Assembly (NCBI GenBank): GCA_977016875.1
Contig: CDRNST010000334.1
Span: forward strand, 744,001 to 808,000
Length of the DNA stretch: 64,000 nt
Direction of reading: 5' to 3'
Source of the DNA: Pavona decussata
Lineage: Eukaryota
Program-made: the position numbers and the translations under genes
Shown here: one piece after another, positions 6,396 through 14,555 of the stretch
Layout: every line of letters begins with the position of its first letter
Position numbering within the stretch: position 1 is the stretch's first letter
Notes under the pieces: generated by a model
Seen by the model: the letters and a program-made list of their open reading frames with translations, nothing else
Told to the model about the DNA's origin: nothing
Databases searched by the model: none

Positions 6396-6488
6396 CTGAA
6401 TTATGCATCTCTTCGCCAACCTTGTCAAACATTTTAGATCCACGCGGTTGCTCTTGAAGCAGTTTTTGATCGTCATGACTGAACATTT
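6396..6488 (-). CDS. Prepro-peptide gene A, exon 2 (KCSVMTIKNCFKSNRVDLKCLTRLAKRCIIQ)
   Basis: Acceptor ttctttttacag| and donor CAG|gtaata; 93 nt, phase 0/0. Its four Cys align exactly with the 93-nt exon 2 of paralogue B. Confidence 0.85.
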
Positions 6489-7576
6489 CTGTAAAAAGAA
6501 GGGAGAAATTTAAACTCAAAATTAAAATCGAATGTCAAAGTCGATGCGGAAAGAATCATTGTAGATCCGCCGGTGATTTGAAAGCTGTTTACTTTCATGT
6601 GTGATTATTTCTTAAGTCACTCTCCTACATTTAACAATGTTATATAGGAAATTCCAGCAAAAAATTACAGGTAAAAATAACTTTCTTTTAACTAAAATGT
6701 TTCATATTTTGTGCAGGAGAACGCACCGTAAGAAATATCTAAATTTTAGAACATGGCGCCCAAATTCCACCCTCATGTCCATGTAACGGTCGAAATAACT
6801 TTAATAGTAAACTTAAAATATATTTTCAATCTGCTGGATACGATGCAAGGAAATGTTTATCCTGTATTTTTTTTTTTTTTTTTTTGGGGGGGGGGGTCCC
6901 TTTTTTTCCCCGAATCACTGGGATTTCTCTCTCGCCCTATTCTTTTTCTTTGGCAGAAGAACAAAAACAACGTGCTGGGTGAAAAAGAAAGAGCTGTAGT
7001 GAAAATACGCCACAGCCAAACTAAAGGGCCTGAAACAAAATATAACTGAAGACTAGAGGAAAACTCTTTTTTCCGATTTGATACGAAAAACTATCTCGTG
7101 AAAAGCACATTGGCATTATTTAAATTGAATCAGGAATATCCAAGGCTATGTAGTCGCTATTTGAAAACGTTTAGGTGCGAAAGAATGCGTTTCTTTTTCC
7201 AATTTAATGCTGAAAATAAGTGTAGAATTAGAACTCCACTGTGAAGTTCAGTAGCATCTCGATTGCTGCCCCAGCAAGACAACTAACACCCTGGTCTTCC
7301 CCCTTTCGGAAGCTTTCTCGTCCATTCATTTCTCATTCGTCTGTAAACCACGAATTCCTGTCATTGCTATTCGGTGAAGTTATCATCTCAGCTGAAAGCA
7401 AACTGCCGGACAGTCTCAAAGCTAGTGTTTGATTCAATCAAAAGTTATTACCTTTTGGGTCGAATCTTAATTGTGCCCTGGTAGGAACTTCGTTAAAGCA
7501 AAATAACCGAATTAGCGACCTTATTGCATGTTCTTTTATAAGAGAGAAGAAAACATAAAAACTAAATTGATACTAC

Positions 7577-7759
7577 CTTATTTTTCATACGCTCATCATC
7601 ATCATTTTCGTCGATGCTGTCGTCGCCATTCTCAGTAAGATCGTTAACCTGAACATCTCCCTCTTCACGGTCCTCGCCTTCACTCATTTCTTCAAACAAA
7701 GGGTTTGCGTACACCACGGTCGCCAGAAGGACGAAGGCTAATGCAAAAATCAGCCTCAT
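7577..7759 (-). CDS. Secreted Cys-rich cationic prepro-peptide gene A, exon 1 of 3 (signal peptide + acidic pro-region)
   Basis: ATG at 7759; encodes MRLIFALAFVLLATVVYA|NPLFEEMSEGEDREEGDVQVNDLTENGDDSIDENDDDERMKNK (61 codons). Phase-0 donor AAG|gtagta at 7576-7575, the same as in paralogue B. TATAAAA lies ~105 nt upstream. Confidence 0.88.
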
Positions 7760-7864
7760 GTTTTATTGTCAGTAATTTCTTTCTTTTCAGCCGAGCTCCG
7801 AAACACGACGTAACTATATTCACCACGAGTGAATCAGCTTTCAAACGCCCGACGCTTGCTGATC

Positions 7865-7871
7865 TTTTATA
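7865..7871 (-). promoter_or_regulatory. TATA box of peptide gene A
   Basis: TATAAAA on the minus strand, at the position equivalent to the TATA box of gene B. Confidence 0.7.
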
Positions 7872-9851
7872 GAAATTTGTGAAGCAGATGGCCCTCGATC
7901 GTTGGATAAGAAATCCAATACACCTGATTATGGGAAAATTTGAAGGCAAACAGCTCAAGGAAAATATATTTGAAATTTAGAGACTGTTTTAACAGCTTTT
8001 TCATAACCTGCTAACGTCTAAAAGCGTCAAAGAAACCCGTTTCACTTTAAAGAGGCAAATAGATAAAATGAGATTGAACATTTTCAAATTGTATAAAAAC
8101 ATAGAATTATGCAATACAATAAGTTTGCTTTTACTGCGCAAAATAATCACGATTAAATTGTGAGATATTCCATTTACTCGAACAAACGTTAAATTTTAGT
8201 TTGCTTTGTGATTTTGCGATCTTTTTTTTATTTTAAAAAAACTAATATTTTTTTTTTCGAGTGTTGTGAGAACGTGAGTTCCATTGCGAGCTGCGAAAAA
8301 AGTATCCCGAAAGTGTGGCAGTTTACAACTCGGAGGAGGCTAGCTTAAACCATACTAACTTAATTCATATCGGTAAAGAATTAGATTGCCTCGCATAAAT
8401 GGCTTTTACCATGCTCCCATTCAATTCAAGCCTATTAACTAGGAACATTGTTGTTTGTGTTTTTATATTTATAACTGCTAAAGTTTAAAAACGTCCTTGT
8501 ATCGTTGAAAAAAAGTGCTATCGGTAACTAGAGAATCAAATTCTTATCGCTTAGAAATATTTTCCGTAATGTATATTTTTTTTTTACTTTTTTAAGTGGG
8601 GGTGGGTGTCGTAACCTAGTTAGTCAGATCAACTACAAAATCACACGGAAAAAAAACCTAGAAATTGAAACATGAGTTCATGCGATATTGTGTTTACCAA
8701 GTGACGTTATTCCCTAACAGATTCAGCCCAGGCGTGCAGGATGATGCCGACTGGAAAGTAAAAACATGAACAACGGATTGTGTTTGGAAAAGAGCTAGCG
8801 CCTATCACAAATATCAGAGAAAAAACTAACCAATTTTGAGATTTGTATGTTTATATAACTGATCATGATCAGATATTTAATTTTGTCGGTGAAAATACCT
8901 GAGTCTCTCAAGAATATTACGAGGCGACCTTGCCAAGCTTGTTTGTGGAAAGAATCGTTTCTGATTCAGTGGTTTCTAAGGATATCAATTTTAGCATTCA
9001 GCATTTTGACATTAAAATGACTATATCACAAATTGGACAACCATTTAACTTCGTTTGACAATCTTAACTGAACGTGGGTAGTTTTCGTCGATTCTGCAAT
9101 TGAAAAATAATTTGCAATTGAAAATTTGAAAAGTTGTTTATTCTTGAGTCTTGAAGCTGTGTCTGAAATTAAAGCGCAAATTGTGCAGTGTCTGGTTCAC
9201 ATGACACGTTTCGTTCAAAGTTATTTTACCGTATATATTCATTGAGAAATTTTTTCGATTTTTCATTTTTATCCATAGAAATGAACTTTCTAGTAAGATC
9301 TTAGAAACAGCAAAAGTTTGAAAAAGAGTCCTCTCTTGTGTTGAAGCTGTGTCTGAAATTAAAACACAAATTGTGAAGTGTCTGGTTAACATGACACGTT
9401 TCATTCAAAGTTTTATTTTACTGTTATGTTCAGAGAGAAAATTTTTAGATTTTCATTTTTATCCATAGAAATAAACTTTCCAGTAAGATCTTAGAAACAA
9501 AAAAAAATGAAAAAGAGTGAATATTTGCCGAGAAATTTGGATCATGATAAGCGTTTTTCACCTGAAATAAAACTTTACTTTGATTGACATGCAACATATT
9601 GCTGTTTTTCCAATCTTTAATCTTCGCTTGGAGAGGAAACTTTCAAAGGTTAGAACTCAGAAAAAGATTTGGTCGATTTAAGTCAACTTCGATCATGCCA
9701 CGGAATTTGAAAATTCTAAAAATTCGTTCTTTGAAAAGCCATTTCCCTGACTCCGCATTTTTTCTCGCCGTTTTAAAAATGTTCTATAACTTCTGAACGC
9801 AATCGAAATAAGGAAAATCCAACACGATTTATTTTCATTTGGGATCCTGAC

Positions 9852-9966
9852 ATAAGTATTATAAAGGAAATAAAGGGAGATGTAAATAATCGACCATAAG
9901 AGGACACAGAAAAAATCTGATCTCCAGATGGGATTCGAAACCACGACCCTCCGTGTTCTAGATCGA
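9852..9966 (-). mobile_element. Truncated tRNA-derived retro-insertion with an 8-bp target-site duplication
   Basis: ATCCTGAC duplicated at 9844-9851 and 9967-9974. Contains a B-box-like gtttcgaatccc on the minus strand. The empty homologous site is at ~700. Confidence 0.7.
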
Positions 9967-12830: not shown

Positions 12831-13086
12831 CTTGACTGATCATTCAGTATAACTCTGTATCTGTATACAATTTGAAAATGTTCAATCTCATTTTATCTAT
12901 TGGTCTCTTATAAAGAAACGGGTTTCTTTGACGCTTTTAGACGTTAGGAGGTTATGAAAAAGCTGTTAAAACAGTCTCTAAACGTCAAATACACTTTCCT
13001 TGAGCTGTTTGCCTTCAAATTTTACCATAATCAGGTGTATTGAATTTGCTATCCAACGATCGACGGCCATATGCTTCACGAATTTC

Positions 13087-13093
13087 TATAAAA
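13087..13093 (+). promoter_or_regulatory. TATA box of peptide gene B
   Basis: TATAAAA ~97 nt upstream of the ATG, conserved in gene A. Confidence 0.7.
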
Positions 13094-13183
13094 GAGCAGC
13101 AAGCGTTTGGCGTTTGGAAGCTGATTCACTCGTGGTAAAGTTACGTCGTGTTTGAGCTCGTCTGAAATTACTGACAAGAAAAC

Positions 13184-13366
13184 ATGAGGCTGATTTTTGC
13201 ATTAGCCTTCGTCCTTCTGGCCACCGTGGTGTACGCAAACCCTTTGTTTGAAGAGATGAGTGACGGGGAGGACGAAGATGGGGATGTTCACCTAACAGAT
13301 CTTGCTGCTGAGAATGAAAACGACAGCATCGACAAAAATGATGATGTTGAGCGTATGAAAAATAAG
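13184..13366 (+). CDS. Secreted Cys-rich cationic prepro-peptide gene B, exon 1 of 3 (signal peptide + acidic pro-region)
   Basis: Encodes MRLIFALAFVLLATVVYA|NPLFEEMSDGEDEDGDVHLTDLAAENENDSIDKNDDVERMKNK. Donor AAG|gtagta at 13367; TATAAAA at 13087. Confidence 0.88.
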
Positions 13367-14462
13367 GTAGTATAAATTTAGTTTTTATTTTTTTTTCGCT
13401 CTCTTTCTTATAAAAGACAATTAGGTCGCTTATTCGGTTATTTCGCTTCAACTAAGTTCCTTACAGGGCAAAATTAAGATTCGACCCAAAAGGGAATAAC
13501 CTTTGAGTGAATCAAACACTAGCTTTGAGACTGTCCGTCAGTTTGCTTTCATCTGGGATGATAACTTAACTGAAAAGCAATGATAAGAAGTCGTGGTTTA
13601 CAGAGGAATTTAAGACGAGAAAGCTTCCTAAAGGGGAATGATCACGGTGTTCGTTGTGTTGCTGGGGCAGCAATCGAGATGCTACTGAGCTTCACAGTGG
13701 AGTTCTAATTCTACACTTATTTTCAACATTCTTCCCACCAAAACGCTTTTAAATAGCAATCACATAGTCTTGGATAACCCTGATTCAATTTAAATAATTG
13801 CCAATTTGTTTTAATTTCTTGGCACTAGATTTCGTATCAAATCGAAAGAAGAAGTTTCCTCTAGTCTTCAATGATATTTTGTTTCAGGCCCATTAGTTTG
13901 GCTTTGGTGTATTTTCACTACAGCTTTATCTTTTTCACCCAGCACTTTGTTTTGTTCTGCTGCCAAAGGTAAAGAATAGGACGAGAAAGAAATTACAGTG
14001 ATAACGGTAAAAAAAAAAGTTGCCCCCCCCCCCAAAAAAAAAAATTAAATAAATAAATAAATGAAAATAAAGGATAAAAATTTTTTTGCATGATATTCCA
14101 GCAAATAGAAAGTATATTTTAAGTCTACTATTATACTTATTTCGACCGTTACAGGGACATAAGCATCAAGAAATGTAATGAGGGTGGAATTTGGGCGCCA
14201 TGTTCTAAAATTTAGATACTTCTTACGGGGCGTTCTCCTGCACAAAATATGAAACATTTTAGTTAGAAGAAGGTATGTTATTCTTACCTGCAATTTTTTG
14301 CTGGAATTTCCTACATAATATTGTCAAATGTAAGAGAGTGGGATGGGAAATCATCTCACATGAAAGTAAAAGGCTTTAAAAGCACCTGCGGATCTACAAT
14401 GATTCTCTCCACATCGACTTTGATATTAGATTTTTATTTTGAGTTTCTCTCTTCTTCTACAG

Positions 14463-14555
14463 AAGTGCCAACTGAAGAGGATCAAAAAGTGCTTCAAGGG
14501 GAACCGCCCGAACAAAAAATGTTTGAAAATGTTTGTGAAGAAATGCAACATTGAG
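14463..14555 (+). CDS. Prepro-peptide gene B, exon 2 (KCQLKRIKKCFKGNRPNKKCLKMFVKKCNIE)
   Basis: Acceptor ctctcttcttctacag| at 14462 and donor GAG|gtaata at 14556; 93 nt, phase 0/0. Cys spacing is conserved with gene A. Confidence 0.86.

Follow-up and report, generated by a model that had tools for sequence, protein, structure and literature searches.

Genes A and B, located in the window (the whole 64,000-nucleotide stretch of Pavona decussata DNA analysed here), are three-exon spliced genes that form one end of a cluster of paralogues about 480 kb long. Positive selection is the likely reason why their hairpin exons have outrun their introns. Their products are predicted to be secreted and freed from an acidic pro-region, and are likely to act as cationic antimicrobial peptides (AMPs); this whole reading can be given a probability of roughly 0.58. 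Judged from sequence, the family to which they belong is likely to consist of undescribed, rapidly diversifying AMPs.

The two genes are carried by the arms of an inverted duplication, which share about 80-82% BLAST identity, gaps included. The left arm (3571..8910, minus strand) contains gene A and the right arm (12000..15910, plus strand) contains gene B. In gene A, exon 1 (7577..7759, minus strand, ATG at 7759) encodes a predicted signal peptide of about 18 aa and an acidic pro-region (net charge -14), and ends with a phase-0 donor. Exon 2 (6396..6488, minus strand) encodes a first hairpin module, C-x7-C-x9-C-x7-C (net +7), and bears a burst of replacements described below, whereas the coding part of exon 3, stop included (4429..4536, minus strand), encodes a second one, C-x6-C-x6-C-x6-C (net +4). 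In the same way, gene B has a first exon (13184..13366, plus strand, ATG at 13184) encoding a predicted signal peptide and an acidic pro-region (net -12) followed by a phase-0 donor, a second exon (14463..14555, plus strand) with a C-x7-C-x9-C-x7-C module (net +12) and a third coding exon, stop included (14917..15090, plus strand), whose C-x6-C-x27-C-x6-C module (net +17) holds a Gly-Lys repeat loop. The third exons of both genes, which lie outside the region initially described, add four further Cys, and diverge at least as much as exon 2. They are followed by a 3' untranslated block common to the family (15091..15210, plus strand, in gene B), showing 85-93% identity with 22 of the 23 other copies and 71% with the remaining one.

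All four introns of A and B are found as spliced joints in 4/4 RNA-type contig sets (at most three samples, from three studies), including both joints of gene A (7577/6488 and 4536/6396), each in 4/4. In all, spliced transcripts were found in 6/6 RNA-type runs examined, most of which had been picked because they contain the gene; the RNA status of runs was deduced from the spliced joints themselves, no run being recorded as RNA.

The family includes 28 exon-1 loci, 27 of them within 281.9-757.4 kb of the contig that carries the window (C334) and one on another contig (C310). Exon 1 is intact in 21 loci and 20 genes are intact, while 8/28 loci are broken. In the protein collection, the family was found only as mis-called open frames. 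The precursors comprise a predicted signal peptide (judged by eye), an acidic pro-region (net charge -10 to -25 in 21/21) and a cationic C-x6/7-C-xn-C-x6/7-C module, single or double, the net charge being at least +8 in 31/34 modules. Both this succession of signal, anionic and cationic regions and the clustering of multiple paralogues are those expected of cnidarian bipartite AMPs of the periculin/arminin type. The Cys spacing is x6 or x7 in 34/34 full modules, and most members have four Cys per module. In a manual count, 19/21 sequences had a dibasic pair either closing exon 1 or spanning its end; the precursors of A and B have no R-x-x-R site, but only a Lys-Lys pair across the exon junction. 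Among the 34 hairpin cores, only 23 are distinct, a redundancy that is also compatible with amplification for dose.

A conserved signal associated with a variable mature region is a textbook evolutionary pattern. The original prediction recognized it here and proposed that the mature domain, built on a fixed Cys frame as in AMP or toxin families, undergoes diversifying selection; this conclusion stands, whereas the pairwise exon-2 evidence offered for it does not. The counts themselves were reproduced exactly: the first 78 nt of A and B differ at 2 sites, both synonymous, and exon 2 differs at 25/93 nt, with 16/31 residues changed, 2 purely synonymous codons and 4/4 Cys kept. The introns are indeed more alike than exon 2 (127/1096 differences in flanking intron vs 25/93), a contrast beyond chance given the Fisher p value of 1e-4; the p-distance over introns and flanks is 0.11-0.14 per aligned site. 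It should be emphasized that the raw counts alone do not demonstrate selection. As 7/18 changed codons differ at two positions, a count of synonymous codons underestimates dS. Averaged over paths, exon 2 shows 5 synonymous changes in 17 sites (pS 0.29) and 20 nonsynonymous changes in 76 (pN 0.26), and its dN/dS is 0.89 by the Nei-Gojobori method or 1.4 by maximum likelihood (2dL 0.2), not different from 1. Site models applied to the four exon-2 copies were not significant either (p = 0.56). Diversifying selection is nevertheless partially supported, because exon 2 outruns the introns (on the A branch only) and because site models of the terminal hairpin of 20 paralogues reject neutrality. As for exon 1, it shows 2 synonymous changes in 18.7 sites (0.107), as compared to an intron rate of 0.116, and no nonsynonymous change in 59 sites (p = 3e-4): the signal region of A and B is under purifying selection. 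Since its synonymous divergence equals the intron rate, gene conversion of exon 1 is ruled out as the source of the contrast and is not needed to explain it.

The excess of replacements belongs to gene A. Private changes affect 16/93 positions of its exon 2 vs 19/514 intronic positions (p = 9e-6), i.e., a rate 4.6x that of its own flanks, and this excess ends at the exon borders. Furthermore, 15/16 codons at which A is unlike all three other exon-2 copies are residue changes. No such excess over introns is seen in gene B or in the other two copies of exon 2. The omega of the A branch is 6.3 and its test against 1 gives a 2dL of 3.6 for a branch that was picked after inspection of the data; the same test without the four Cys codons (2dL 8.3) is a biased post hoc cut and was not counted. 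A search of the genome for a closer donor of A's exon 2, with 4/4 candidates scored, found none. Gene A may be a copy that changed rapidly after duplication and lost charge, its modules (only +7 and +4) being weakly positive for the family.

Selection was also studied on 28 codons of the terminal exon of 20 paralogues (for A and B, this is exon 3), the loops of 4 genes being masked; the codon models were run with our own code instead of PAML and ignore multi-nucleotide mutation. Mean pairwise p-distances are 0.075 for the signal, 0.10 for the 3' UTR, 0.14 for the pro-region and 0.32 for the hairpin. The 3'-intron distance (p 0.19, tree length 2.56) was discarded, since a few genes had non-homologous intron forced into the alignment, which inflated it. 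Omega across the 20 genes is 0.48 for the signal, 0.81 for the pro-region and 2.1-2.6 for the terminal hairpin, whose tree-length dS (1.6-1.7) is near that of the pro-region (1.5), with a dN of 3.7-4.4. With scaled branch lengths, M8 is preferred to M7 (p = 8e-5) and to M8a (p = 1e-5). The calibration of these scaled lengths looked anti-conservative (1/9 approximate simulations at a 2dL of 16.8), so the models were refitted with free branch lengths. The comparison of M2a with M1a then gives 2dL values of 23.5, 22.5 and 27.5 under three tree/frequency settings, with about 25-30% of terminal-hairpin sites at an omega of about 4. This class above 1 in the hairpin, together with a signal omega below 1, is what positively selected defence or toxin families show. 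Neutral simulations did not reach the observed LRT on one tree (0/27, max 10.9) or on two conflicting trees (0/30, max 11.2), i.e., 0/57 fully fitted simulations; 3/16 two-tree replicates were optimiser failures (2dL 92-876) that fell to 2.3-4.4 on refit. For the 14 closest paralogues, M0 gives an omega of 0.85 and the preference for M2a over M1a reaches only p = 0.025. The exon-1 tree and the terminal-unit tree disagree, which indicates that recombination occurs.

These data bear on whether there is any adaptive diversification at all. Relaxed redundant copies, together with gene conversion homogenising introns and UTRs, or an exon-limited transfer from a distant paralogue, would account for the 8/28 broken loci, the pairwise exon-2 dN/dS of about 1, the recombination evident from the conflicting trees and the lack of excess in every exon-2 copy other than that of A. 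However, relaxation cannot surpass the neutral rate, yet exon 2 of A exceeds its flanks 4.6-fold up to the exon borders and almost only by residue changes (15/16), no closer donor was found among the 4/4 candidates scored in the genome, and the two-tree simulations (0/30) already include conflicting histories; this explanation is thus very improbable. A role in recognition or structure, as a gamete, larval or allorecognition ligand or as a mucus or skeletal matrix binder, is scarcely more probable. Reproductive proteins likewise show positive selection, and hairpins that bind polyanions or receptors could change under reproductive or self/non-self conflict. Since the remote homologues, presented below, are uncharacterised repeat proteins of great length and low charge, the family did not necessarily start with an antimicrobial function. 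The cluster peptides are in contrast cut to size, with a strongly acidic pro-region and a charge raised from about +1..+6 to about +11, and their spliced transcripts occur in 6/6 RNA-type runs, although most of these were selected as containing the gene.

Toxin genes commonly encode a signal, an acidic pro-region and a mature region with a Cys frame, and their exons evolve faster than their introns. The family could encode venom or allelopathic toxins, produced by nematocytes or gland cells and directed against prey, predators or competing corals, whose ion channels or membranes they would attack, and its Lys/Arg-rich surfaces could block K+ channels. Peptides of 28 residues with a net charge near +11 are, however, more typically membrane-active AMPs. 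Acrorhagin I and B-IV are anthozoan secreted peptides with disulfide-stabilised helical hairpins, according to PMC13608440, a fold that is only predicted for the family; they have four disulfides in one hairpin vs two predicted per family module, and no PDB chain matches meaningfully by sequence. Furthermore, the scaffold is absent among the nine anemone neurotoxin folds given in PMC6627431, the Palythoa V-shaped helical neurotoxin has two Cys and a single disulfide (PMC5630949 and PMC12655438) vs four Cys in family modules, and cnidarian toxins are described in PMC13608440 as mostly under purifying selection. A toxin function is therefore unlikely, although less so than the two preceding explanations.

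The family can be compared with several known systems. In Hydra, AMPs such as periculins and arminins resemble the family in their bipartite charge, their many Cys and the clustering of their paralogues (28 copies for periculin; PMC10945409). Periculins are reported as Hydra-only, modules with four Cys are the rule in the family, and periculin is absent among the 9 profile matches of the family. Three stony-coral AMPs are named in PMC12496222, all ShK-like. Damicornin, AmAMP1 and digitiferin are, like the family, secreted Cys-rich cationic coral peptides (PMC12496222 and PMC11767717), but they contain ShK domains and six (or ten) Cys, whereas family modules have four Cys and, in a Pfam scan of the five window exons (E up to 1), no ShK match. 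Four Cys, two antiparallel helices, C1-C4/C2-C3 bonds and multi-module precursors with linkers characterise the alpha-hairpinins of plants and the CS-alpha/alpha toxins of scorpions and cone snails (PMC7191063); four Cys and multi-module precursors also occur in the family, for which two helices are predicted and C1-C4/C2-C3 bonds are suggested by geometry. Their C-x3-C per helix differs from the C-x6-C or C-x7-C found in 34/34 modules, making this an analogy of working only.

AlphaFold2, run with the family alignment, predicts a helix-loop-helix (helices 2-12 and 16-32, pLDDT 80) in which geometry suggests disulfides C1-C4 and C2-C3, Cys 2, 9, 19 and 26 lying on the two helices. Fold searches with the 34-residue model returned generic hairpins only (best Z 5.0). 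Neither the five window exons, scanned at E up to 1, nor the homologues match a real Pfam family; the PDB sequence search gave three rows, all Arp2/3 (E 0.35-0.38), and ESM Atlas, queried with two homologues, no usable match. Word-based protein searches returned only exon-1 open-frame calls in close genomes (6 and 13 matches), and a search with the hairpin alignment returned nothing. No description of the family was found in the text of the papers searched, mostly open-access ones; the identifiers of the remote homologues yielded no paper either.

As antimicrobial peptides, the hairpins would be masked by the acidic pro-region until a convertase cuts the basic site encoded where exon 1 ends, and would then bind anionic microbial surfaces. 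Birth-and-death duplication, joined to selection by microbes, could diversify the non-Cys positions. Such a large, expressed and fast-evolving cluster without Pfam family provides direct candidates for coral immune effectors, since peptides of 28 residues lend themselves to synthesis and assay. It would also be a case of positive selection in cnidarian effectors, though purifying selection is said to prevail for toxins.

The origin of the family can probably be traced to an exon module of a repeat protein, followed by duplication of the cassette. Profile searches retrieved Nematostella LOC5507853 and LOC5515691 and Montipora XP_068696084 (E 1e-13 to 1e-4), which share with the family C-x6-C-x(9-13)-C-x6-C repeats, a signal-like start and acidic spacers. 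Their modules number 6-12 and bear little charge (net -1 to +8), in contrast to the 1-2 strongly cationic modules of the cluster genes, themselves amplified about 28-fold. Homology between the two is likely, repeats and Cys spacing giving part of the score. AlphaFold2 modelled a long homologue with low confidence (pTM 0.23). Tentatively, and with somewhat less assurance than the main reading as a whole, one exon-sized C-x6-C hairpin module of an ancient anthozoan repeat protein may have become strongly cationic, gained an acidic pro-region and expanded into the cluster of about 28 genes, whose precursors hold one peptide, a tandem hairpin or two peptides. The family would then be a fourth class of coral AMPs, the first non-ShK-like one in stony corals, positively selected and possibly shaping microbiome and disease tolerance. 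The two-peptide paralogues probably result from recombination that joined a terminal exon to exon 1 of the next copy, at a short sequence present in both; in seven paralogues, the second peptide is preceded by a repeated acidic linker. A relative in the same genome (G000:C82:1.028-1.040 Mb) has the same layout of one hairpin per exon, its phase-0 acceptors immediately preceding the first Cys.

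The window carries an inverted duplication that holds A and B, two divergently oriented paralogues at the end of a cluster of peptide genes. Gene A lies on the minus strand (exon 1, 7577-7759; exon 2, 6396-6488; exon 3, 4429-4536) and gene B on the plus strand (13184-13366, 14463-14555 and 14917-15090, respectively). The original prediction covered exons 1 and 2 of these gene models but missed exon 3, where each gene encodes a further module with four Cys. The introns of A and B are phase 0 and GT-AG throughout. All four are absent, with borders matching the models, from contigs of 4/4 RNA-type runs, which represent no more than 3 samples and 3 studies; the B joints were also found in two further RNA-type runs, and neither of them in two DNA-like runs. 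This splice check covered 8 of the 18 listed runs, of which 0/18 are recorded as RNA. In a contig from sequencing run X8, an exon-1 end closest to that of gene A (window 7577) is joined to exon 2 of B (14463). This contig could stem from an allele or orthologue of B whose pro-region has diverged less, from conversion, or from a join made in assembly. In RNA contigs from other individuals, 4 coding sites differ in exon 3 of A (3 replacements) and 3 in exon 3 of B (2 replacements), numbers too small to be tested. A high-copy repeat, displaying very high depth in DNA-like runs, opens intron 2 of both genes (6150-6325 and 14616-14719) and recurs at 20834-21004. The upstream region between the two genes (10995-12849) is internally duplicated, and the similar block found at the window start (151-416) likely belongs to a broken copy at 742 kb of the contig.

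It had been proposed that exon 2 of A and B evolves under diversifying selection. The underlying counts were exactly recovered: the first 78 nt show 2 differences, both synonymous, and exon 2 differs at 25/93 nt and 16/31 residues with its four Cys conserved. This exon is also more divergent than the introns (25/93 vs 127/1096, p = 1e-4). The observation is confirmed and its interpretation partly supported; dN/dS of the exon-2 pair lends it no support. The Nei-Gojobori ratio is 0.89 (pN 0.264, pS 0.29), the ML estimate is 1.4 (2dL 0.2) and a site model applied to four exon-2 copies is not significant. Gene conversion of exon 1 was rejected as the cause of signal conservation: the synonymous rate of the signal equals the intron rate and 0/59 nonsynonymous sites changed, which argues for purifying selection.

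Upstream on the same contig, two additional copies of exon 2 belong to genes whose exon 1 is broken. In the four-copy comparison, private changes are in excess in exon 2 of A (16/93 vs 19/514 in the flanking intron, p = 9e-6) and neither in that of B (6/93 vs 33/514) nor in the two other copies. The exon-2 excess is confined to one lineage, A, and of the 16 codons that set its exon apart from the other copies, 15 alter the residue. A branch model gives an omega of 6.3 on A vs 0.33 elsewhere, with a 2dL of 3.6 against 1 for this branch chosen post hoc.

The family was surveyed over 224-808 kb of the contig and 50 kb of contig C310; DNA searches with exon 1 and with the 3' untranslated block common to the family returned 30/30 and 24/24 scored candidates, respectively. 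Three further flanking stretches contain no gene copies. The 28 exon-1 loci comprise 20 intact genes, 7 genes with a broken exon 1 and one with a stop in the peptide exon. Ten intact genes encode a single hairpin module, three (A, B and a copy at 282 kb) encode two tandem modules, and seven possess a middle exon in which a module is joined to a second acidic linker ending with a basic site. The joint of this middle exon falls inside a short sequence common to the terminal exon and exon 1, suggesting that it likely arose by recombination between tandem copies. An orphan terminal exon interrupted by an insertion of ~1.3 kb lies at G000:C334:305696-307288, with no exon 1 found nearby.

The modules share the pattern C-x6/7-C-xn-C-x6/7-C and, in 31/34 cases, a net charge of at least +8; 23 of the 34 are distinct. 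The net charge of the pro-region ranges from -10 to -25. Of 21 intact first exons, 19 end in two consecutive basic residues that sit at the junction or span it (manual count), and many modules are followed by basic-basic-Gly-Arg, which we take to be a possible amidation signal. AlphaFold2 predicts two helices (2-12 and 16-32, pLDDT 80) from a 21-row alignment; the exon in its first row shares 91% identity with an intact one and comes from a paralogue whose exon 1 is broken. Since Cys occupy positions i and i+7 on each helix, the disulfides would likely be C1-C4 and C2-C3. Pfam, PDB sequence and fold searches gave nothing specific for the module.

Among the 20 intact genes, the mean pairwise distance is 0.075 for the signal, 0.14 for the pro-region, 0.32 for the terminal hairpin (28 codons) and 0.10 for the 3' UTR. 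The exon tested in the family is this terminal hairpin, i.e., exon 3 and not exon 2 of A and B. For the signal, pro-region and hairpin, codon models (custom GY94 code, loops masked in four genes, multi-nucleotide mutation outside the model) give omega values of 0.48, 0.81 and 2.1-2.6, respectively. M2a is no better than M1a for the signal and pro-region (p 0.49 and 0.94). When branch lengths are left free, the same comparison on the hairpin yields a 2dL of 23.5, 22.5 and 27.5 in three settings, with an omega near 4 at 25-30% of sites; with scaled branch lengths, M8 is better than M7 and M8a. Tree-length dS of the hairpin (1.6-1.7) is similar to that of the pro-region (1.5), and its dN reaches 3.7-4.4. 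Neutral simulations with the four Cys fixed give a maximum 2dL of 10.9 on one tree (n=27) and 11.2 on two conflicting trees (n=30). An earlier approximate calibration (2dL 16.8 in 1/9) and the 14 closest paralogues taken alone (omega 0.85, p = 0.025) count against selection on the hairpin.

We propose, with a probability of about 0.58, that the cluster encodes putative secreted prepropeptides in which the acidic part would mask the cationic hairpin, that a convertase would free this hairpin, which would then act on microbes, and that duplication, loss and positive selection may have moulded the cluster. Hydra AMPs likewise combine an acidic/cationic charge split with gene clustering in the available parts of PMC10945409 and PMC11767717. 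By analogy, the cluster peptides may work like periculins and multi-module alpha-hairpinins. However, the modules lack the C-x3-C motif defining alpha-hairpinins in the available text of PMC7191063, and the Cys motif that defines ShK-like coral AMPs in the accessible portion of PMC12496222. No published description of this peptide family was found in the main texts of the openly available literature.

A toxin, a class to which the original prediction had also likened A and B, appears unlikely. The modules lack the Cys motif of the Palythoa V-shaped toxin as defined in the available parts of PMC5630949 and PMC12655438, and their hairpin is not included among the anemone folds in the part of PMC6627431 available. 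They may be related to acrorhagin I (PMC13608440), to which the PDB sequence search gave no hit, while fold searches with the 34-residue model returned generic hairpins (best Z 5.0). A role as a recognition or structural ligand seems less probable still. A non-adaptive explanation has the lowest standing, slightly below the ligand.

A profile search among 1.84 billion representatives gave 9 matches at E <= 0.001. The three named ones, two Nematostella proteins and one Montipora protein, are uncharacterised repeat proteins with 7-12 weakly charged hairpin modules; one further match, acidic, is probably convergent. Protein P0021, from a marine source, carries hairpin modules followed by a region weakly similar to saposin C (E 0.002). 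A relative encoded on another contig of this genome (G000:C82:1028000-1040400) shares 40-63% identity with the Montipora protein over 8 matches. Its gene has multiple exons (7 found) with a single module per exon and, like the cluster genes, phase-0 acceptors 1-2 codons ahead of the first Cys. Judging from sequence, this layout suggests an exon-module origin of the cluster peptides, and this long hairpin-repeat gene is a candidate for their ancestral form. The relative would also place the host among the hexacorals, likely the stony corals.

The first unrelated gene past the cluster end encodes a rhodopsin-type GPCR (17759-18805, minus strand; single ORF of 348 aa; 7tm_1, E 2e-29). Near-perfect long inverted repeats, presumably MITE-like, lie at 43482-44283 (310 nt at 97%) and 45764-46227 (224 nt at 91%). 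Exons of a GH18 chitinase lie at 52982-55991 (minus strand) and encode a Thr/Pro-rich linker plus two Cys-rich repeats of 57 aa, with a partial copy ~10.1 kb away at 63369-63863.
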